DNA of 64,000 nucleotides from Hadesarchaea archaeon. GTDB taxonomy: Archaea; Hadarchaeota; Hadarchaeia; Hadarchaeales; WYZ-LMO6. Location of the stretch: positions 14,875-78,874 of the forward strand of contig JAPDJF010000003.1 in NCBI GenBank assembly GCA_029259185.1, read 5' to 3'. Positions 1,122-57,185 of this stretch are shown one piece after another. Each line of letters begins with the position of its first letter. Within the stretch, counting starts at the first letter, position 1. The position numbers and the translations under genes were made by a program. The notes below the pieces were generated by a model, which saw nothing but the letters and a program-made list of their open reading frames with translations, was not told the DNA's origin and ran no database searches.

Positions 1122-1910
1122 TCACCTCTTCAATTTCCCAGCTCTTTGTCGGCGAAGGGAGATGATAGAGGCCGGAAAGAAGGCCAGCGCGATCATAACG
1201 TCGGTAAGTGCTCCGAGGTTGAATGATCCTCCCCAGAGGAACTGGAACGCGTAGCGGAAACCCGTGTCCATCCCGGGGGGCTGTCCGACATAGAGGAGGA
1301 GGAAAAAGCCCATTATGATAGCCACCAAGATGTTAAGCCGTCGCGGTGGGTACAGCAGGAGGAGGAAGCCGTAAACCATACCCAGAATGGCCGTTTCGTT
1401 GAGACCCAGCGGACCCCACTCCCCGGGCAGGACCTGAAGACCATTCAAGAAGCCGAAAAGGATGCCGATGATGGCGAGCGGATAGAAAATCTTTTCTCTG
1501 TTCAGGTCGAGACCAGCAGTAGGTCGGATTGCTTCACTCGCAAATGTCAAGTAGAACAGCGTGAAAATTAGCCAGATTGGAAACGCCAACAGTGCTACCG
1601 GGACCAGAAACCACGGGAGGATCTCCGCTACATCCATTGTGCCCATTTCGTAGGGTTTGGTGCCAGGAATCACGGTTGAGAGAACGTAGCTGAACATCAG
1701 TACGGCCGCCCAAGCCATTAGAATGCGGTACCACTGAAGCCGGCGGTTTTCCGGCACGAGGAAGTAGGCAGAGCACACGAGGAGAGTGGCAAGCGTGCTG
1801 TCGACTTGGAGACCCGGCCTCCAGCGCGGGTTCTCAGATGAATAGATTAGCCCAGCTACTCCCGCGATCGCGAGAACAGCAATAATGGAGAGCGCCACTA
1901 AAATCTTCAT
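1122..1910 (-). CDS. Integral membrane protein (about 7-8 TM), function unknown.
   Basis: Minus ORF. The likely true start is MKILVALSIIAVLA at 1910. The upstream extension in the ORF track (MGIIMSEDAQ...) is read-through of the IS-derived repeat. Confidence 0.55.
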   Translation of the reverse strand: MKILVALSIIAVLAIAGVAGLIYSSENPRWRPGLQVDSTLATLLVCSAYFLVPENRRLQWYRILMAWAAVLMFSYVLSTVIPGTKPYEMGTMDVAEILPWFLVPVALLAFPIWLIFTLFYLTFASEAIRPTAGLDLNREKIFYPLAIIGILFGFLNGLQVLPGEWGPLGLNETAILGMVYGFLLLLYPPRRLNILVAIIMGFFLLLYVGQPPGMDTGFRYAFQFLWGGSFNLGALTDVMIALAFFPASIISLRRQRAGKLKR

Positions 1911-2132
1911 TTTGACCACCGCGGAAGGTTTAAGGCACTTCCGCGGGGAGAAACGGCTTGGATGTGGTCCGGATACCCGAAAACCCGAATAGTGCTCCGG
2001 ACCGAAGCGGGCGGAGGAGTCGAGCAGGCTCGCTCTAGACTGGCCGCCGTCAACCGGCCCCGTGCGGGTCTGAGCGTCTTCGGACATGATGATCCCCATG
2101 CAAGCCCCTTCCTTTAGGCAGGGGTAGTTGAC
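1911..2132 (+). mobile_element. MITE-like non-autonomous derivative of an IS200/605 (TnpB-type) element. Its left end is shared with the element at 44800. Its right end (...gtcttcggacatgatgatc...gggtagttgac) is shared with the element at 46852-47777.
   Basis: Direct sequence identity of the terminal blocks among the three copies. It is inserted immediately 3' of TTCAT (1906-1910), which is the complement of the ATG-AA start of the adjacent gene. A perfect 9-bp subterminal hairpin (ccgcggaag...cttccgcgg) is present. Confidence 0.55.
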
Positions 2133-2329
2133 TCAGCCACTCTACTCCGAGACGCGATTTAGTCTTTTGCGTGTGGACATCGTTCAAATAAAAGCCTCCT
2201 CCCAAGCTTTTAGCTCTCCTTCTTCGCCTGATCACGAACTTCGTCCGTCATGGCAGACGGGAGACGCCAGCGCACCAAGCATGGGTCTGGCCGGAGCTTG
2301 GATGAAATAGCTGGATGGATAATCGCGCT

Positions 2330-3033: not shown

Positions 3034-3130
3034 GGGCCCGTGGTCTAGTGGTCATGAGGGGAGAACGGATCCCCTGACAAACGTCGCCTTGACGAGGCGA
3101 AGATCCTGGGTTCGAATCCCAGCGGGCCCA
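3034..3130 (+). tRNA. tRNA-Val(GAC) with a 24-nt intron at a non-canonical position (D-stem 3' side, between tRNA nt 24 and 25; genomic 3058-3081).
   Basis: Acceptor GGGCCCG/CGGGCCC with discriminator A. D-loop AGTGGTCA. T-arm CTGGG-TTCGAAT-CCCAG. Anticodon arm TCGCC-TTGACGA-GGCGA gives anticodon GAC with U33 and purine 37. Removing 3058-3081 restores a canonical ...GUCAUGACG... D-stem/position 26. The intron folds as an hBHBh'-like motif: a 4-bp helix GUCA/UGAC flanked by 3-nt bulges UGA and AAA, with an internal hairpin GGGGA-GAACGGA-UCCCC. Confidence 0.7.
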
Positions 3131-3407
3131 CCTTCTTTTGGATCGACTGAAGAGATGGTCGAGCGGAAGCAGACCTACGCCGAGCGCCTGCTGGGGGATG
3201 CGGAGGACAGAGGGTGTGTCGGAAGCTACACCGAGTCGGCGCTCAAGACGATCAAATGTAATATTGAAACGAGAAAGCATTTTTGAAGACTTCAAATTTA
3301 TGCACATAAAAATCGACTACAAAGGTCCTCTTCGGGACTTTTGACCTCTACCGTTGAGTGATATCTGAAGGCTGGTCTCGAGGAGGGTTCGAAGTGGGGC
3401 CGAAGCG

Positions 3408-3505
3408 TCCACGCTCGCTCGGTGAGTGTTCATGCTGTGACTCCAAAACGCCCACCAGACCAAGTGATTGGTATTTTCCCCAGTCAAAAAAAAGTCGTGT
3501 CCGAG
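3408..3505 (+). repeat. Repeat E, copy 2 (direct repeat of 2330-2425).
   Basis: See copy 1. The two copies bracket tRNA-Val and a GC-rich segment without ORFs. Confidence 0.4.
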
Positions 3506-13892: not shown

Positions 13893-13976
13893 GGGTTTAA
13901 TTCCTTTTCTGAAATTTCTTATTTATTTTTTGTTTCCAGTTTTTGCTTTATCACAATTTCTGGAATATTTTAGAGC

Positions 13977-14160
13977 GGAATCGAGCGAGAAACCCCGCGC
14001 GCTTTAGCCGTGGGGTGAATGCGTGCCGAGGGCCGATTCCGCAATAGCTAACGGCCCGAGCGAACGCCCGGAGACCAAGACCCCCGTAACCCCCCTTCCA
14101 AGGGGGATCGAGCCTGGTCGTCGAAGCATGAAGCCACCGCTTTAGCGGTGCGGTAGTTCA
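13977..14160 (+). repeat. Repeat F, copy 1 (about 185 nt; hairpin-rich; other copies at 35552-35730 and 48487-48675).
   Basis: Near-identical blocks (gaatcgagcgagaaaccccgcg(c)gctttagc(c)gtgggg...ggccgattccgcaatagctaacggccc...ccgtaacc...gggggatcgagcc...ccgctttagcggtgcggtag) in all three copies. Confidence 0.5.
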
Positions 14161-15681
14161 TCTCCTTGCAGGTCTCTCGAACTTTCGGAGTTCAATTACC
14201 TCCACCCTCACGTTTGCCTTCGAGCAAGTTTCTACAAGCGAACTACCCCATCTCTTGGGATCGTTAAAGAGTAAAACCCTGCGATACATCTTTCCGTACC
14301 TTAAGAGATATTCCGAAAGCGATTCACACACCGTGTTAATCTGTGCTTCATCCAGCTCTTTTGGAACCACCACTTGGCCTAAGGGATAAAAATCCTCTAG
14401 CTCCTCGGGGACTACCCCGAATGGTGGCACGAGTCTCACCACGTGAATAGATTCAAGGTTCTCCAACATTACCTTGCGTTTCTCAAAGGATGGCAACAAA
14501 ACCAGAGTTTCGGCCGATGGGGGCTTATATCTCCTCATCCTAGATCGGTGTCGGAGAACCTCCGGACGTCTCACAGCCTCAGAACCGAGATAATCGAACG
14601 CCGAGGGTTTTGTGACGGGATCGAATCGCTCTATGAATTCGGTGTAGTTCATGAGTCTCCTGAGTCCCTCGAGTAGCTTGGGGTGAGATCTGCACTTTAG
14701 CTCAACGTATTCCCACAACCTCCCCTCGACTATCGCCTGTCTTATCCTTCGGATCTCCCCAAAGAGAACATGCAGGTTGTGTCGAGCCAGAACTCTGATC
14801 CTCTCGTCGGTTGGGGCTTCCTTCAGTTCTCCCACCGAATATCCAGTGCAGACCGGACACTCACACGGGAGGAAGGCGAGGTCCTCAAGTTTCAGGGTTT
14901 TCTCGTGGGTAAGATACCGACCGTCTCTTGCGTACAGTATGTATGAGGCTGAATCGAAGAGGTCACAGCCCATGAGCACCAACATCGATAGAACCATTGG
15001 GTGTCCAGCTCCGAAGAGATGGACTGGTCGATCTAGGGGAAGGTGCATTTTGGCGGTCATCACCAAATCGACGATGTCAGTGTACGCATATCCCTCCAAG
15101 AATTCGACAGGGCTACCGATCGCGTGGATATGGTAGTCCATCGTACCCATCCTCCGGGCACACTCAGCGACCAAATCCAAATATTTCCCCCCTTGGACGG
15201 GAGCACACCAAATCGTTTCTGGATTCGATCTGAAACGTGTTGCTCGTTCAGCACGCTCCACTGTCGCCCTAACCGTTTCCAGCGCATGATTCCTCGAAGC
15301 CGCTGCTCCGGTCGGGACATCCAAAATGGTCGCGATGTCTGAACCTATCGAATCTTGGTACTTCACCACTTCGTCAGGATCAGCATCGATTTCTCCGTAT
15401 CGAAGGATTTGATACCCTCCGGAATCGGTAGCGATGGGGCCGTTGTAGTCCAGCATCTCGTGGACTTCTCCGTCTCCAAACTTCTTCATCAAAAAATAAG
15501 CATTAGTCATAATCAAACTCTCTTTGAATTCTCGCTTGATCTCAGATGGTTTGATGATGAGGTTGGATGGATCGACTACGGGCATTAGAGCGGGGGTGAG
15601 CACTCGTCCATGTCCGGTTCTCAGTTCGCCTGTTCTACCCATCCCATCCCGGTGGATTATTCGAAAAAATCCTCTTGACAT
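14158..15681 (-). CDS. tgtA: Archaeosine tRNA-guanine transglycosylase (ArcTGT, TIM barrel plus C-terminal PUA).
   Basis: 507 aa. TGT signature (DSGGYQ, zinc CxCxxC ... LFGAGHP) and C-terminal extension domains. Confidence 0.8.
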   Translation of the reverse strand: MSRGFFRIIHRDGMGRTGELRTGHGRVLTPALMPVVDPSNLIIKPSEIKREFKESLIMTNAYFLMKKFGDGEVHEMLDYNGPIATDSGGYQILRYGEIDADPDEVVKYQDSIGSDIATILDVPTGAAASRNHALETVRATVERAERATRFRSNPETIWCAPVQGGKYLDLVAECARRMGTMDYHIHAIGSPVEFLEGYAYTDIVDLVMTAKMHLPLDRPVHLFGAGHPMVLSMLVLMGCDLFDSASYILYARDGRYLTHEKTLKLEDLAFLPCECPVCTGYSVGELKEAPTDERIRVLARHNLHVLFGEIRRIRQAIVEGRLWEYVELKCRSHPKLLEGLRRLMNYTEFIERFDPVTKPSAFDYLGSEAVRRPEVLRHRSRMRRYKPPSAETLVLLPSFEKRKVMLENLESIHVVRLVPPFGVVPEELEDFYPLGQVVVPKELDEAQINTVCESLSEYLLRYGKMYRRVLLFNDPKRWGSSLVETCSKANVRVEVIELRKFERPARR

Positions 15682-35515: not shown

Positions 35516-35551
35516 ATTCGACCTGGGAAAATTGATGATGAAGCTTTAGAA

Positions 35552-35730
35552 CGGAATCGAGCGAGAAACCCCGCACTTTAGCGTGGGGTGAATGCGTGCC
35601 GAGGTCCGATTCCGCAATAGCTAACGGCCCGAGCGAACACCTGGAGATCAATACCTCCGTAACCCCCTTCCATGGGTGATCGAGCCTAGTCGTCGAGGAG
35701 GAAGCCCCGCTTCAGCGGTGCGGTAGTCCA
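35552..35730 (+). repeat. Repeat F, copy 2.
   Basis: See F copy 1. The first hairpin has compensatory changes (ccccgcactttagcgtgggg). Confidence 0.5.
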
Positions 35731-35850
35731 CTGTCTTAGTAACCTCAAACCCGTACCTCGAACGAGTGGGCCCCCCGGATTTTGGGTATACCGGAAAATG
35801 GGCCTTAGATTTGACCACAAGTATTTAAAAGGTCTTGAGGAAGAGGGAAG

Positions 35851-39845: not shown

Positions 39846-40045
39846 TTTAATTCAAAAAACTTTTCCCATGTCGAAACGAGGACTCGGCAGAAAATTTCAT
39901 CCCGTGAGCACAGTTGCAGGAGGTTCGGTCCCTCGTGTGTGCCACCCCGGCCGTTTTATCGGTACCTCAGTACTGGTCGGTGAACTACCCCGCCCTAAAG
40001 GACGGGGCTTCTGCGCTCGCTGGCCAACGGGTAACTTCAGGGTCT

Positions 40046-44154: not shown

Positions 44155-44799
44155 CTACAAAAAGTACTCCTTTATGAATTCAAAATTTCTTTTAGTCTTT
44201 TCCGCCCCTTTGACCACGCCACCGTGGCCTGGGAGCAGGTAGTGAATATCCAACTCGGAAACCCTTCTTATGGAGTCCTTCAATTTCTCCAGATCACCGC
44301 CTGGAAAGTCTGTGCGACCCACACCACCCTCGAACAGGAGATCCCCGCACATCAGTAACTTCAGTTCCTCACAGTAAAAGCTCACACTCCCGGGTGTGTG
44401 ACCGGGAGTGTGAATCACCACGAATTTCATTTTTCCCCCCAGTTTGTCCTCCAAAAAAATATCAACATCGAACTTCGGCATCTCCATTCCGAAGTACCCA
44501 GCGAACTCCATACTGAATGAGAGGTGTTCTAATTCCTCACGGTGCATCGCTATCTTAGCCCCTGAGAGGGTCTGAAGTGCACGGTTGGCCCCGCAGTGAT
44601 CGGGGTGGCTGTGGGTGTTCGCTATTAGGTCTATTTCTCTGATATCGAAACCATCGTTTTCCATCTCCGATAAGCGCTGACTCAAATATCTTGGATTTCC
44701 GGGATCGATGAGCACGCAAGGATTGTTGTCTATCAAGTAGGTGTTGCAGTCACCGATAGCTTTCTCGGGATACCAATAGACATTTTTGACCAGTTTCAT
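44155..44799 (-). CDS. MBL-fold metallo-hydrolase (glyoxalase II-like).
   Basis: THSHPDHCG (HxHxDH) motif. The probable start is MKLVKNV at 44799. Confidence 0.7.
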   Translation of the reverse strand: MKLVKNVYWYPEKAIGDCNTYLIDNNPCVLIDPGNPRYLSQRLSEMENDGFDIREIDLIANTHSHPDHCGANRALQTLSGAKIAMHREELEHLSFSMEFAGYFGMEMPKFDVDIFLEDKLGGKMKFVVIHTPGHTPGSVSFYCEELKLLMCGDLLFEGGVGRTDFPGGDLEKLKDSIRRVSELDIHYLLPGHGGVVKGAEKTKRNFEFIKEYFL

Positions 44800-45627
44800 C
44801 TCGACCACCGCGAGGAGACCCCGTCCGAAAGGGCTGGGAGATTTTTAGGTGAAAATGCGCGTGCGATCTTTGAAGACAGTCCAGCAGGGAGAAACGGCTT
44901 GGATGTGGGCCGGATACCCGAAAACCCGAATAAGCTTGTACAGAAATTCTTTCTGGCTCCGCGGATAGCTTTGCAGGAGCCATGAGTTCCTCCGCTACCT
45001 GACACTCTCTACCACCATTCTCGCTTTGTTTGAACACATACCGTAGAGCCTGCTAGAGAAGCTGGCGACGACGGAGGGGAGATCTCCGACTAACTCCTCG
45101 TGGGGAGTTCGTTCTTCTCGTTCATTTACCACTTCTATTCGAGCGCCGAGATCCTCAGCGTGATTTTTCAAATACTCAAAGCCAAAGCGGGTGAGGCGAT
45201 CTTTCCACGCAACGATCACGGTATCGGCCTCGCCAGCCCTAAGCATCTCGAACACTTTTTTCAACCCCCGTCGGTTCTCGAAAGTCGCAACCACTCGTAT
45301 CGCTTGCCCCTCGCGTATTCCTGAAGCATTCGTTTTTGACGTTTCAAATCTTCTTTCTGATCTACTGAGGAAACCCGTGCGTAGGCGATAGCCCGATTTT
45401 TTGGGACTCGTTGACCGAGCAACCGTTTGATTCCGCTCTCTGGGATACGATACCTTTTGGCCGCAGCCTGATGGCCTTGACCCTGCCCGCGTAAATCCAG
45501 CGCTTTATGGTGATGAACGAAATCTCCAAGAGCTTGGCCGCTTGCCCCGGTGGGCAGAGTTTTTCCCCTCGCATGTTCACCTGGGATATAAAAGGATATT
45601 TTAGGTAGCAGTTACATCACCTTCGAC
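44800..45627 (+). mobile_element. Chimeric/degenerate IS: an IS200/605-type left end (shared with the 1911 and 46852 copies) followed by an inverted, frameshifted IS607-type tnpA. The right boundary is approximate.
   Basis: Left-end identity (ctcgaccaccgcgaggagaccccg...gtgaaaatgc) and the block gagaaacggcttggatgtgg.ccggatacccgaaaacccgaata shared with copy A. Inserted 3' of TTCAT (44795-44799). Confidence 0.45.
44995..45580 (-). pseudogene. tnpA: IS607-family tnpA (MerR-like HTH plus serine-recombinase catalytic domain), disrupted by at least two frameshifts.
   Basis: Three minus-strand frames carry consecutive TnpA blocks: HTH (AAKLLEISFITIKRWIYAGRVKAIRL), the active-site region (AIAYARVSSVDQKEDLKRQ) and RGLKKVFEMLRAGEADTVIVAWKDRLTRFGFEYL. 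Confidence 0.6.
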
Positions 45628-46056: not shown

Positions 46057-46851
46057 CTATCCACTTGAAGCCGCTCTCTCCACCACTTCACTTAGCTCTG
46101 TCATTTTCTCTAGAATTCTCTCACCCCCCTCCGCATCGAATACAGAGACTCCCTTGAGTTCAGCTCTAGCCACACTTTCTTCGTATGGGATAGAGTATAT
46201 GGGAGGAACCCCAATTTTTTGGAGCTTCGTTGAAATGAATTCATTTTCTCTATCACGATATTTGTTTATTACCCCGAATATCTTGGTTATCCCTAGATCC
46301 TCTCCAAGCTTTTTTATCCGTCCAGCTGTTTCGATGGACCTCAGGCTCGGTTCCACCACTGTCAGGAGGATCTCCACTTTTCTCGTCGTTCCCCTTCCAA
46401 GATGTTCCACTCCAGCTTCCATGTCTAGGAGTAAAACATCAGCGACGCCTGAGAGGTGATCCACGAGTCTCCTCGCCAAGGCATTAGCTGGACAGAAACA
46501 ACCCTGTCCCCCCCTTCTGATTCTTCCAACGATAAGGAGTTTAACGCCATCCTTGCATTGGACTCCGAACTTATCTAATAAATCATCGACTTTCGGATTT
46601 AATTTGAAGATCAGTCCATATCCTTCAGGTGGTGCTCCGGTTCTCTCTTCGATGAGGGAGTCTCTCTCCATCAAAGGGATCAGTTTTCTTTCCGGAACTT
46701 CCCCACCAACTCCTAAGGCCGTGATGAGATTCGGGGAAGGATCGACATCCAGTGCAATGACTTTTTTCCCCCTTCTAGCGTAGGCTCTGGATAGTCCTGC
46801 GGCGATCGTTGTCTTTCCAACACCACCTTTTCCCGTTATGGCGATCTTCAT
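46057..46851 (-). CDS. cooC: CooC/AcsF-type Ni-insertion ATPase (MinD/ParA fold) for CO dehydrogenase/ACDS maturation.
   Basis: Walker A GKGGVGKTT plus the CooC-specific CxC motif (GQGCFCPANA). The probable start is MKIAITG at 46851. Confidence 0.7.
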   Translation of the reverse strand: MKIAITGKGGVGKTTIAAGLSRAYARRGKKVIALDVDPSPNLITALGVGGEVPERKLIPLMERDSLIEERTGAPPEGYGLIFKLNPKVDDLLDKFGVQCKDGVKLLIVGRIRRGGQGCFCPANALARRLVDHLSGVADVLLLDMEAGVEHLGRGTTRKVEILLTVVEPSLRSIETAGRIKKLGEDLGITKIFGVINKYRDRENEFISTKLQKIGVPPIYSIPYEESVARAELKGVSVFDAEGGERILEKMTELSEVVERAASSG

Positions 46852-47777
46852 CTCGACCACCGCGAGGAGACCCCGACCTTTTGAGGCGGGGAGGAACTGC
46901 GGGGGGGTTTTAAGTGAAAATGCATATACGCTGTTCTGATGAGGCTCGCCAAGACCGTCGCGTGCAGGCTTGAGCTCAGCGACGAGGAACGGCATAAGCT
47001 CCTCGCACGCTCCAGGCTTTTCGGGATGCCTGCAACCACATCTCCAAGATCGCCTTCGAGCGCAGGGTGTTCAACCCCGTCGCCCTGCACCACATGGTTT
47101 ACAGAGATACCAGGGCCAAATTCGGCCTGCCTGCGAACCTCGCAATCCGCGCCAGGGATCGGGTGGCCAAAGCATACAAGCAAAGGCGGAACAGGCTCCT
47201 CCGGTTCGACAAGCTCTCGCTCGACCTCGACGCTAGGCTCTTCCGTGTGTTCGAGAAGCCCGACGGGTGGCACGCCTCCATCGCAACGGTTCAGAAGCGG
47301 ATCAAGCCCCCGCTCAAAATAGGCGAATACCAGCGGAAACTGCTCGAGGGTGTCAAGCCGACCCACGCCGTGCTCACCTACAAGAACAAGCGGTTCTTCC
47401 TGCACGTCACCGTCGAGCGAGAAGTCCCGGAGCCAAAAGGAGATAACCCAGCCGCTGTTGATGCGGGAATGAACAATTTGCTCGTCGCTTCCAACGGCTT
47501 CAAGGTCAGGGGCAAAGGTATCCTCAAACGAAGACAGCACTTTCGAGCCTTGCGCTCCTCCCTCCAAGCCAAAGGCAAGCCGTCTGCCAAGCGCGGGCTG
47601 AAACGGCTCGGCTCGAAGGAGGGGAGATGGGTTGCTCGCGTGAACTTGGAGCGGAGAGCCGGCTCTCCCTCCATGGGCCGCCCCGTCAACCGGCCCTATG
47701 CGGGTTTGAGTGTCTTCGGACATGATGATCACCCTGCAAGCCCATCCTTTAGGGAAGGGTAGTTGACCTTCTTAACC
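46852..47777 (+). mobile_element. Degenerate IS200/605-family (TnpB-only type) element. It consists of a left end, a tnpB pseudogene with an internal deletion, and a right end.
   Basis: The left end is shared with 44800 and the right end with 2040-2132. Inserted 3' of TTCAT (46847-46851), which overlaps the cooC start. Confidence 0.6.
46939..47762 (+). pseudogene. tnpB: tnpB (IS605 OrfB family) remnant. N-terminal part only, with one frameshift near 47010 and a deletion of the RuvC/zinc-finger C-terminal region.
   Basis: MRLAKTVACRLELSDEERHKLLAR, then after a frame change TLQAFRDACNHISKIAFERRVFNPVALHHMVYRDTRAKFGLPANLAIRARDRVAKAYK...AAVDAGMNNLLVASNG...KRLGSKEGRWVARVN. The remnant then runs directly into the right end. 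Confidence 0.6.
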
Positions 47778-47804
47778 AAATACTTTAAGAACTCAAAACT
47801 GTTA

Positions 47805-48050
47805 CGTTCACTTTCCCTCGCGCTTCGCGGAAGCTTTCCCCGCTTTAGCGGTGCTCTAGCCCCTGCTTCATCCACCGACCCGATCCCATCCCCCTTCGGG
47901 CGGTTACGGAGATCCAATGTCCATCCTACCCGCGTCGTGGAGGTTTACAGGCGTTGGGTTCGGGGTGGCCCTCTCCACCTCCCGGAAGATTTTCGGCTCT
48001 CATCCCCAGCTCTCGCAGGGAACTTTCCGCTGACAGAATTAAAATAGGAG
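47805..48050 (+). repeat. Repeat D, copy 1 (about 245 nt; candidate structured RNA/MITE; the inverted copy is at 56912-57185).
   Basis: Four long conserved blocks match the inverted copy. They are separated by two variable insertions (19 vs 28 nt and 1 vs 24 nt). Confidence 0.5.
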
Positions 48051-48074: not shown

Positions 48075-48485
48075 ATGGGAGAGAAAATAGCGAGAATAAG
48101 CATCACTTTGCCCCAAGAGCTCCTTAAGGAACTCGATAAATCATTGAGGGCTCAACGATATGCAAGCCGGTCTGAGGCGATAAGAGATGCGGTCAGAGAC
48201 TTCTTGGCGGCATACAAGTGGCGAACGGAGTTAAGGGGAGAACAGTTGGGAGTTATCGTCCTCCTTTATGATCACCATACCCGCGGGCTTACGGATGTGA
48301 TCACCGAGATCCAGCACGAAAAAAGTGAGGTGATAAGAGCCTCCCAGCATATGCACATCGATCAGGAAAACTGTATGGAAACCTTGATGGTAAAGGGACC
48401 ATCGGAAGAGATAAAACGACTGGTAGATAGGCTAGGGGCACTACGTGGAGTCAAGCAAGCTAAGCTCATAGTGGTATCGTCTTAG
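48075..48485 (+). CDS. nikR: Nickel-responsive regulator NikR (RHH plus C-terminal metal-binding domain).
   Basis: N-terminal RHH (KIARISITLPQELLKELD...RSEAIRDAVRDFL) and a C-terminal domain with His/Cys ligands (HH...H...C). Confidence 0.7.
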   Translation: MGEKIARISITLPQELLKELDKSLRAQRYASRSEAIRDAVRDFLAAYKWRTELRGEQLGVIVLLYDHHTRGLTDVITEIQHEKSEVIRASQHMHIDQENCMETLMVKGPSEEIKRLVDRLGALRGVKQAKLIVVSS

Positions 48486-48486
48486 G

Positions 48487-48675
48487 TGAACTACCGCACC
48501 GCTAAGGCGGTGGGCCTCTTGCTTCAACGATGAGGCTCGATCCCCCTTGGAAGGACGGGTTACGGAGGTCTTGACCTCACGGGCGTTCGTTCGGGCCGTT
48601 AGCTATTGCGGAATCGGCCCTCGGCACGCATTCGCCCCACGGCTAAAGCGCGCGGGGTTTCGATCCCGTTCTAAA
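48487..48675 (-). repeat. Repeat F, copy 3 (reverse orientation).
   Basis: The reverse complement aligns along its full length to F copies 1 and 2. Confidence 0.5.
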
Positions 48676-56911: not shown

Positions 56912-57185
56912 TTTTAACTCTGTCGGCGGGAAGTTCCCTGCGAGAGCTGGGGATGAGAGCCGAAAACCATGTTATTTCCCCTCCAATTTCTTCCGGGAGG
57001 TGGAGAGGGCCACCCCGAACCCAACGCCTTGGAAAACCGATGACCTGCACAGCGCAGGTAGGATGGACATTGGATCTCCGTAACCGCCCGAAGGGGGATG
57101 GGATCGGGTCGGTGGATGAAGCAGGGGCTAGAGCACGCTAAAGCGGGGAAAGCTTCCGCGAAGCGCGAGGGAAAAGCGGAAGCCC
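56912..57185 (-). repeat. Repeat D, copy 2 (inverted relative to copy 1), in the convergent fdhB/cdhE intergenic region.
   Basis: Its reverse complement aligns to 47805-48050. Confidence 0.5.

Follow-up and report, generated by a model that had tools for sequence, protein, structure and literature searches.

The described systems closest to the elements considered here are the ISDra2-type transposons and the solo tnpB elements of Sulfolobus islandicus, which encode a TnpB protein with a RuvC domain and a zinc finger, have sub-terminal hairpins at both ends, lack inverted repeats and target duplications, insert 3' of a conserved pentamer that is also the transposon-associated motif (TAM), and possess a structured 3' region into which the end of tnpB extends (PMC8612924; 10.1101/2023.03.06.531077). 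Haloarchaea harbor core-deleted elements of the IS605 type, the palindrome-associated transposable elements (PATEs), which are short and gene-less and retain near-terminal palindromes and terminal oligonucleotides (PMC3119063). As for the target, the pentamer TTCAT is known from ISGst5 of Geobacillus stearothermophilus, in which it is both the flanking target and the TAM of the nuclease IscB (10.1101/2023.03.14.532601). The subject of this report is a set of three insertions, called A, B and C, in a 64,000-nucleotide stretch of a Hadesarchaea archaeon genome (GenBank assembly GCA_029259185.1, contig JAPDJF010000003.1, positions 14,875 to 78,874 of the forward strand), hereafter referred to as the window. 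Judged by their sequences, they belong to the known IS1341-type kind of the IS200/IS605 family, with one PATE-like derivative and one IS607-type fragment, and we hold it to be about 85% probable that all three are decayed, non-autonomous relics of an archaeal tnpB-only element that inserts at NTCAT, in the window on start codons.

The family to which these copies belong resembles the ISDra2-type and S. islandicus elements in its TnpB, in its sub-terminal hairpins and in the lack of inverted repeats and target duplications, and differs from them in its target, which is NTCAT rather than TTGAT or TTTAA, in the location of about 60% of its insertions on the start codon of an oppositely oriented gene, and in that the window copies are dead. 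It uses the same pentamer as ISGst5, which is bacterial, has IscB instead of TnpB and carries tnpA in cis, and whose description reports no start-codon association. In most discussions, TnpB elements figure as selfish homing systems whose short TAM is arbitrary; here the putative TAM is the complement of ATGA, and the proportion of insertions on start codons suggests that target choice can be tuned to a position that spares the gene and is relevant to its expression. Full-text literature searches retrieved no description of start-codon-directed insertion or of a left terminus resembling a Shine-Dalgarno (SD) sequence, and the start-codon habit, a statistical pattern drawn from sequence comparison, may be new to the literature.

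The window has TTCAT followed directly by YTYGACCACCGCG at 1906, 44795 and 46847, and the exact pattern TTCATYTYGACCACCGCG has three matches on the + strand against 0.14 expected, a number reached in none of 100 shuffles. At each junction the CAT is the complement of an ATG that opens an intact open reading frame (ORF) on the minus strand: 1906..1910 holds the ATG-AA start of a membrane-protein gene of 262 aa (1122-1910), 44795..44799 that of a gene for a hydrolase of the metallo-beta-lactamase (MBL) fold (44155-44799, PF00753), and 46847..46851 that of cooC (46057-46851), encoding a CooC-type CbiA/ParA ATPase. A repeat finder aligned the left ends of B and C (44784-44826 with 46836-46878), a block shared by A and B (1929-1991 with 44870-44932, 89% over 63 nt, with a 46-nt core, 1946-1991 and 44887-44932, that is 97.8% identical), and the right ends of A and C (2047-2123 with 47683-47759, 84% identical). 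The G+C content of the elements is 0.56-0.63, that of the flanking genes about 0.45-0.50; terminal inverted repeats are absent, and no target duplication is present at the flanks of A and C.

Most of this agrees with a sequence-only reading of the window, made from its letters without database searches, which had described three IS200/605-derived insertions after TTCAT on the ATGAA starts of neighboring genes. The three matches are exact, the ORFs are intact and the CooC and MBL orthologues start at the same codon, while the derivation from IS200/605 is borne out by the tnpB pseudogene in C, the right end common to A and C, the left terminus common to all three and the match to relatives. The shared blocks were found again as well, and only the outer edges had to be moved, C ending at 47767 instead of 47777 and B at about 45612-45617 instead of 45627. 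The view of the elements as mosaic was partly right: copy A, which had been likened to a miniature inverted-repeat transposable element of 222 bp, is a derivative that has kept both ends and has no coding capacity, and copy B is a composite with an IS607-family gene that the sequence-only reading had missed.

Copy C (46852-47767, + strand) consists of a tnpB pseudogene with both ends. Its left end (46852..46938) begins with 13 nt and GGAGAC, continues with a hairpin (z = -2.1) and the partner of an outer stem, and closes with the TATA-like TTTTAAGT and with GCATATACGC just before the tnpB ATG. The pseudogene (46939..47762) covers residues 1-21, a frameshift near 47003, residues 23-231 and then 340-378; with residues 232-339, the deletion has taken away Asn337 and all but one of the four invariant cysteines of the zinc finger, and its junction lies at D339 of the invariant N337-A338-D339 triplet. 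What is left is 74-79% identical to full-length archaeal TnpBs carrying PF01385 and PF07282 and matches the TnpB profile with E = 1e-121, and its PF01385 score of 24.5 bits falls short of the gathering score owing to the fragmentary state of the sequence. The right end (47640..47767) is a structured region of the omega-RNA type, made of a GTCAAC hairpin, ...CCCTGCAAGCC, a terminal hairpin and the terminal TAGTTGAC at 47760-47767. The flanks of the insertion at the cooC site read GGCGATCTTCAT on the left and CTTCTTAACCAAATAC on the right; the right flank (47768..47811), which would be the earlier sequence directly upstream of the cooC ATG and occupies the guide position, is followed by an unrelated 233-nt repeat and by nikR.

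Copy A (1911..2132, + strand) is non-coding and PATE-like. Its shortened left end contains a hairpin with a perfect 9-bp stem (1916-1948, z = -2.95), followed by the 46-nt block in common with B, and its right end corresponds to the final ~120 nt of that of the family and contains the terminal hairpin and TAGTTGAC at 2125-2132. This right end keeps a remnant of the TnpB C-terminus (about 30 last codons, matching positions 349-380 of the TnpB profile) and aligns with the right ends of 23 relatives. Beyond it, the reverse complement of 2133..2148 reads GGAGTAGAGTGGCTGA followed by ATG; these 16 nucleotides may be the earlier 5' untranslated region (UTR) of the membrane-protein gene, and they occupy the position expected for a putative omega-RNA guide in the TnpB model (PMC8612924). 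The block in common with copy B alone is where copy A departs from the haloarchaeal PATEs. It has no nucleotide match in related loci and none in IMG/VR, and its identification as an internal piece of tnpB (the "ERGIPVVYV.P.NTS" region) was rejected, as the block matches the TnpB profile in no frame.

In copy B, the part of the IS605 type spans 44800..44932 on the + strand and includes the left end, identical to that of C over the first 24 nt, a TATA-like region, tnpB codons ~5-7 (AAGACAGTC), and the 46-nt block; its left-end hairpin is not significant. On the minus strand, a pseudogene for an IS607-family serine-recombinase transposase (44995..45580) follows, with a MerR-like helix-turn-helix, a resolvase domain and two frameshifts. 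In the repaired frame it scores 143.8 bits with the NCBIfam IS607 transposase model NF033518 (cut-off 110; profile positions 2-186 of 187), and PF00239 matches two of its fragments. No right end of the family is recognizable in this copy, and its right edge (45581..45617, with an uncertainty of ~5 nt) was placed by a native-looking SD sequence (GAAGGTGAT) after which the stop codon of a NUDIX gene is read. IS607 elements have tnpA and tnpB co-oriented, whereas the tnpB remnant of copy B is antisense to tnpA and faces it, and its junction of TTCAT with the left end is of the IS605 type. By sequence, copy B thus appears to be a composite of an IS605-type left end and an IS607-family gene. The possibility that the whole family is of the IS607 type was discarded in view of this orientation and of the other related loci, none of which has a serine recombinase next to tnpB.

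The repaired TnpB fragment retrieves about 120 homologues, with full-length relatives of ~385 aa and 54-77% identity in Asgard archaea, Freyarchaeota, Methanomethylicia, Bathyarchaeota, Archaeoglobales and others, among them P0070 of the cultured Archaeoglobus sulfaticallidus PM70-1 at 54%; the protein P0007 reaches 180 bits with the NCBIfam model guided_TnpB, whose cut-off is 100. About 85 loci in all were compared, four obtained by exact protein look-up and 80 from JGI metagenomes by means of a 27-sequence profile; the relatives are metagenomic and phylogenetically non-independent, and duplicates were removed by flank sequence alone. These loci have a common left architecture, in which the NTCAT flank is followed by 13-15 nt, GGARAC, an inner hairpin within an outer stem, the TATA box CTTAAATA, the palindrome GCATATATGC, and tnpB. 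Both stems co-vary among relatives when the alignment is inspected by eye, and the 77-116 nt between the left boundary and the start of tnpB are too few for a tnpA. The right end of the relatives has the form ...TCACCTGCAAGCC, hairpin, TAGTTGAC, and 25 aligned right ends, A and C included, support three helices with compensatory changes in 12 of 19 pairs; no Rfam family matches this region. As in the window, inverted terminal repeats and target duplications are absent.

Some features of single members deserve a description of their own. The palindrome is perfect and lies 6-12 nt before the tnpB ATG in nearly every member (for instance at 46922-46931 in copy C and at ~2480-2490 of locus L101), and its position downstream of the TATA box could make it an initiator region or the site of a regulator. 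In locus L177 (~2380-2440), two copies are joined head to tail, the right end of one (...GGGAGTAGCTGAC) running straight into the left end (CTTATCACC) of a full-length element; such a junction is what either an excised circle or a tandem insertion would produce. Loci L166 and L167 are identical in left flank and left end and have different right flanks, which suggests that copies have recombined or that the assembly is chimeric at the repeat. Two right ends have a tRNA gene as neighbor, with a tRNA-Leu beginning 2 nt after the right end in L139 (2746-2832) and a minus-strand tRNA-Met about 45 nt away in L123 (3701-3778). Finally, the full-length relative P0002 (L096, 1-2888) has HK97-gp10-like and tail-tube proteins encoded around it, in a region that resembles a virus or provirus, and is inserted at a CTCAT in the 5' UTR, 26 nt upstream of the ATG of the tube-protein gene and not on it.

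Alignment of the left boundaries defines the target. TCAT occurs at a fixed position before 53 of the 57 distinct left ends that can be read (P ~1e-97 against chance), and the base preceding it (position -5) is T in 37, C in 9, G in 4 and A in 3 of these 53. The four exceptions are informative rather than contradictory, since one is a mutated TTTAT, one is the left end located behind the right end of another copy in L177, and two are aberrant left ends. The target proposed by the sequence-only reading accordingly narrows to a TCAT core with a mere preference for T at -5, while its expectation that other copies would also be flanked by the motif was borne out among the relatives, most of which have TTCAT itself. 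An extended target was also considered and dropped, as nothing beyond NTCAT is visible in the logos of the left and right flanks.

Among the 53 distinct NTCAT insertions, the CAT opens a minus-strand ORF in 34, or in 31 of 50 once the window copies are set aside, a start codon being called when the ORF had at least 60 codons or stayed open for at least 41 codons to the end of the contig. Several of these genes have Pfam matches that begin at the N-terminus of the model, such as SIS_2 (residues 8-143 on model positions 1-138), RNase_HII (5-202 on 1-199), Ribosomal_L10 (7-101 on 2-98), Fe_dep_repress (8-66 on 2-60) and HTH_5, and several others open with typical signal peptides or membrane helices. 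On the other side of the element, in 12 of 32 start-codon cases, the right flank read on the gene strand matches GGAGGTGATC over at least 5 nt at a distance of 3-13 nt from the junction, against a background of about 5%, so that the elements sit precisely between the SD spacer and the ATG. A practical consequence for annotation is that gene callers over-extend the ORFs beside such left ends, as in the MVEMKLVKN start given to the MBL gene and in a DtxR-like gene of locus L098, which was likewise called too far into the left end.

The uninterrupted order of genes is provided by a relative of the Hadarchaeales (GCA_038851755.1, locus L181), whose CooC is 69% identical. There, a minus-strand nikR is followed after 60 nt by cooC, cooC is overlapped by the NUDIX gene, and the MBL gene begins 4 nt later. 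In the window, the nikR-cooC gap measures 1,223 nt and contains copy C, the unrelated 233-nt repeat and short flanks, and the NUDIX-MBL gap measures 835 nt and contains copy B; hence, the insertions have split the divergent nikR-cooC control region and the cooC-NUDIX-MBL operon, exactly at the ATGs. CooC orthologues begin with M/L-KIAVTGKGGVGKT at the position of the window cooC start, and the codons TTG-AAG (cooC) and GTG-AGG (MBL) of the relative correspond to ATG-AAG and ATG-AAA in the window. The left-end block is absent from both of these genes of the relative. The separation of genes from their native 5' regions, which the sequence-only reading had deduced, is therefore upheld by synteny, and the three genes are now 0.2-0.9 kb away from their original upstream sequence, including cooC, whose product acts in nickel insertion for CO dehydrogenase/acetyl-CoA decarbonylase/synthase, and which had been next to nikR, the gene of its probable regulator. 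The signals for transcription and translation of the three genes would accordingly have to come from inside the elements or from read-through.

According to the reading preferred here, the element would move as single-stranded DNA by means of a Y1 transposase (TnpA) supplied in trans, and would land directly on the 3' side of a short target, which remains beside its left end. The target pentamer would double as the TAM of a nuclease formed by TnpB and the omega-RNA, with the DNA just past the right end as its guide (PMC8612924). Since the complement of NTCAT is ATGAN, genes on the opposite strand that start with ATGA(A) would offer a landing site, where the element would slip between 5' UTR and ATG and leave the ORF untouched, and selection would retain insertions of this gene-sparing type. 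Three such events would have occurred in the window, before the membrane-protein gene, before cooC and before the MBL gene.

A few observations weigh against this reading. A Y1 tnpA is seen near none of the copies, nor among the genes labelled by Pfam in a subset of loci that includes the four obtained by exact protein look-up. A scan of GTDB genomes with the exact left-end 19-mer yielded no further copy, all its 94 matches being chance ones in high-GC bacteria, and the source species, or its element, is not represented there by this exact word. Copy B lacks the right end and contains a gene of another family. The precision of the insertions would follow from the pattern of the family and from a relative whose CooC, the nearest orthologue, is just 69% identical, so that synteny and start-codon positions were compared and no empty site was found at the nucleotide level or in the same species. 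The last point is quantitative and regards a null model in which only ORF-sparing insertions survive, with counts taken from the flanks of the related loci and the window (274 kb). In this material about 25% of the genes start with ATGAN (11 of 43 called genes; 91 of 360 in an SD-guided model), and there are about 0.6-0.85 intergenic ATGAN sites per gene (200-294 sites). The intergenic total derived from ORF-based gene models varied from 50 to 93 kb of the 274 kb, and for this reason the null is given as a range, with the called genes of five loci as its anchor: it predicts 24-33% of insertions at starts, against the 31 of 50 observed (P = 3e-8 to 2e-5). When all TCAT sites are taken as the reference, an excess at starts is trivial. 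The modelled gene-sparing selection falls short of a full explanation of the bias, and the excess over it, of 2-4-fold relative to a null built on approximated gene models, is probably real.

How this excess is to be explained is a separate matter, and the candidate readings can be ranked. The highest place goes to selection acting as a pure filter, in which insertion is random among NTCAT sites, those that disrupt an ORF are lost, and start codons are not favored by the element; we regard this as plausible, at somewhat less than even odds. It draws on the fact that the complement of the target is itself ATGAN, with which a quarter of the flank genes start, and on the lack of any conserved base past NTCAT in either flank, and the most generous definition of "start-like", which is over-generous, lifts the expectation to 46% and makes the excess marginal (P = 0.02-0.06). 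The realistic expectation given above speaks against it, as does the consideration that an insertion at the ATG takes away promoter and SD sequence and should be less tolerated than an average intergenic one; the filter could still suffice if most intergenic insertions were harmful. Less probable, and ranked next, is that insertions at starts persist because the left end bears outward expression signals, namely an SD-like sequence at a distance of 3-7 nt from the junction, perhaps together with a TATA region that works in both directions, and these would limit the harm. Host genes use SD sequences, and in 31 of 49 distinct left ends the reverse-complemented first 18 nt match GGAGGTGATC over at least 5 nt with the spacing of an SD sequence (background 5%), in 22 of 49 over at least 6 nt (background 1.2%), which exceeds the SD likeness of the native flanks that they replaced (12 of 32 at 5 nt or more). 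In addition, the three window genes have kept their ORFs intact in spite of the age and decay of the elements. On the other hand, the TCACCT..CAAG motif is also found 5' of the right-end hairpin, where it has no SD role, and may be a module recognized by the transposase. Moreover, SD-like left ends are evenly divided (17 at starts, 17 not), whereas those without SD likeness are 17 at starts and 2 not, a difference in the wrong direction (Fisher P = 0.006). With the motif at the right end too and no correlation with location in the expected sense, the SD-like left terminus is not supported as the cause of the start-codon bias.

Lowest in this ranking, and improbable, is a mechanistic preference of the machinery for start regions that goes further than the pentamer, as might arise from single-strand accessibility at promoters or translation starts, or from an extended structural context. 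Such targeting would account for the excess over the gene-sparing null and for its persistence in sub-families with very different left-end termini, but the flank logos show no extended sequence signal, non-start insertions mostly have no SD-like right flank, so that SD sequences are not part of the target, and TTCAT would lie on the template strand of the host gene, not on the strand displaced in transcription. A more far-reaching proposal, which we put forward tentatively and consider less likely than not, is that the family is a start-codon specialist, placed by its NTCAT target on the ATG of oppositely oriented genes far more often than the sparing of genes would allow, and that its left end has evolved or has been co-opted to give the severed gene a new ribosome-binding site, and perhaps a new promoter, in which case the host gene would depend on the element and might be regulated by it. 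Very improbable, and already refuted by the comparison with relatives, is the view that the shared blocks are ordinary host 5'-leader or regulatory sequences and not element ends. On the gene strand the block does read GCGGTGGTCGAG-ATG, like a normal SD sequence plus spacer; however, it leads on into the tnpB pseudogene and has a conserved right end as its counterpart, in other phyla these ends border intact tnpB genes whose genomic surroundings are unrelated, and it is absent from the cooC and MBL genes of the Hadarchaeales relative. None of the left ends of the relatives supports a host origin, the outcome that the sequence-only reading had named as damaging to its proposal.

The window contains other repeats, some of which recall the family. 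A second repeat of ~195 nt, with copies 88-98% alike at 13969-14161 (+), 35545-35731 (+) and 48484-48661 (-), ends in a look-alike of an IS605-type right end (...CACCGCTTTAGCGGTGCGGTAGTTCA[T/C]), and its third copy abuts the nikR stop codon; it is probably a PATE or a relic of the solo omega-RNA type from a related family, with the right end TAGTTCAC in place of TAGTTGAC. The same TAGTTCAC terminus and a terminal hairpin of the family type are found in an isolated right-end-like relic at 39983-40045 (-), reading ...AAGCCCCGTCCTTTAGGGCGGGGTAGTTCAC, with no tnpB nearby. A third repeat of 233-263 nt, 95-100% identical and inverted, is located at 47812-48044 (+) and 56912-57174 (-); the copy between copy C and nikR further widens the nikR-cooC intergenic region, and the repeat holds GCTTCAT followed by CCACCGACC, which recalls the junction of target and left end. 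Lastly, Rfam identifies at 3034-3130 (+) a 97-nt tRNA (57 bits), probably an intron-containing archaeal tRNA, that was missed by ARAGORN, and that is flanked by a 70-nt direct repeat of 80% identity at 2325-2394, ~640 nt upstream, and 3405-3474, 275 nt downstream.

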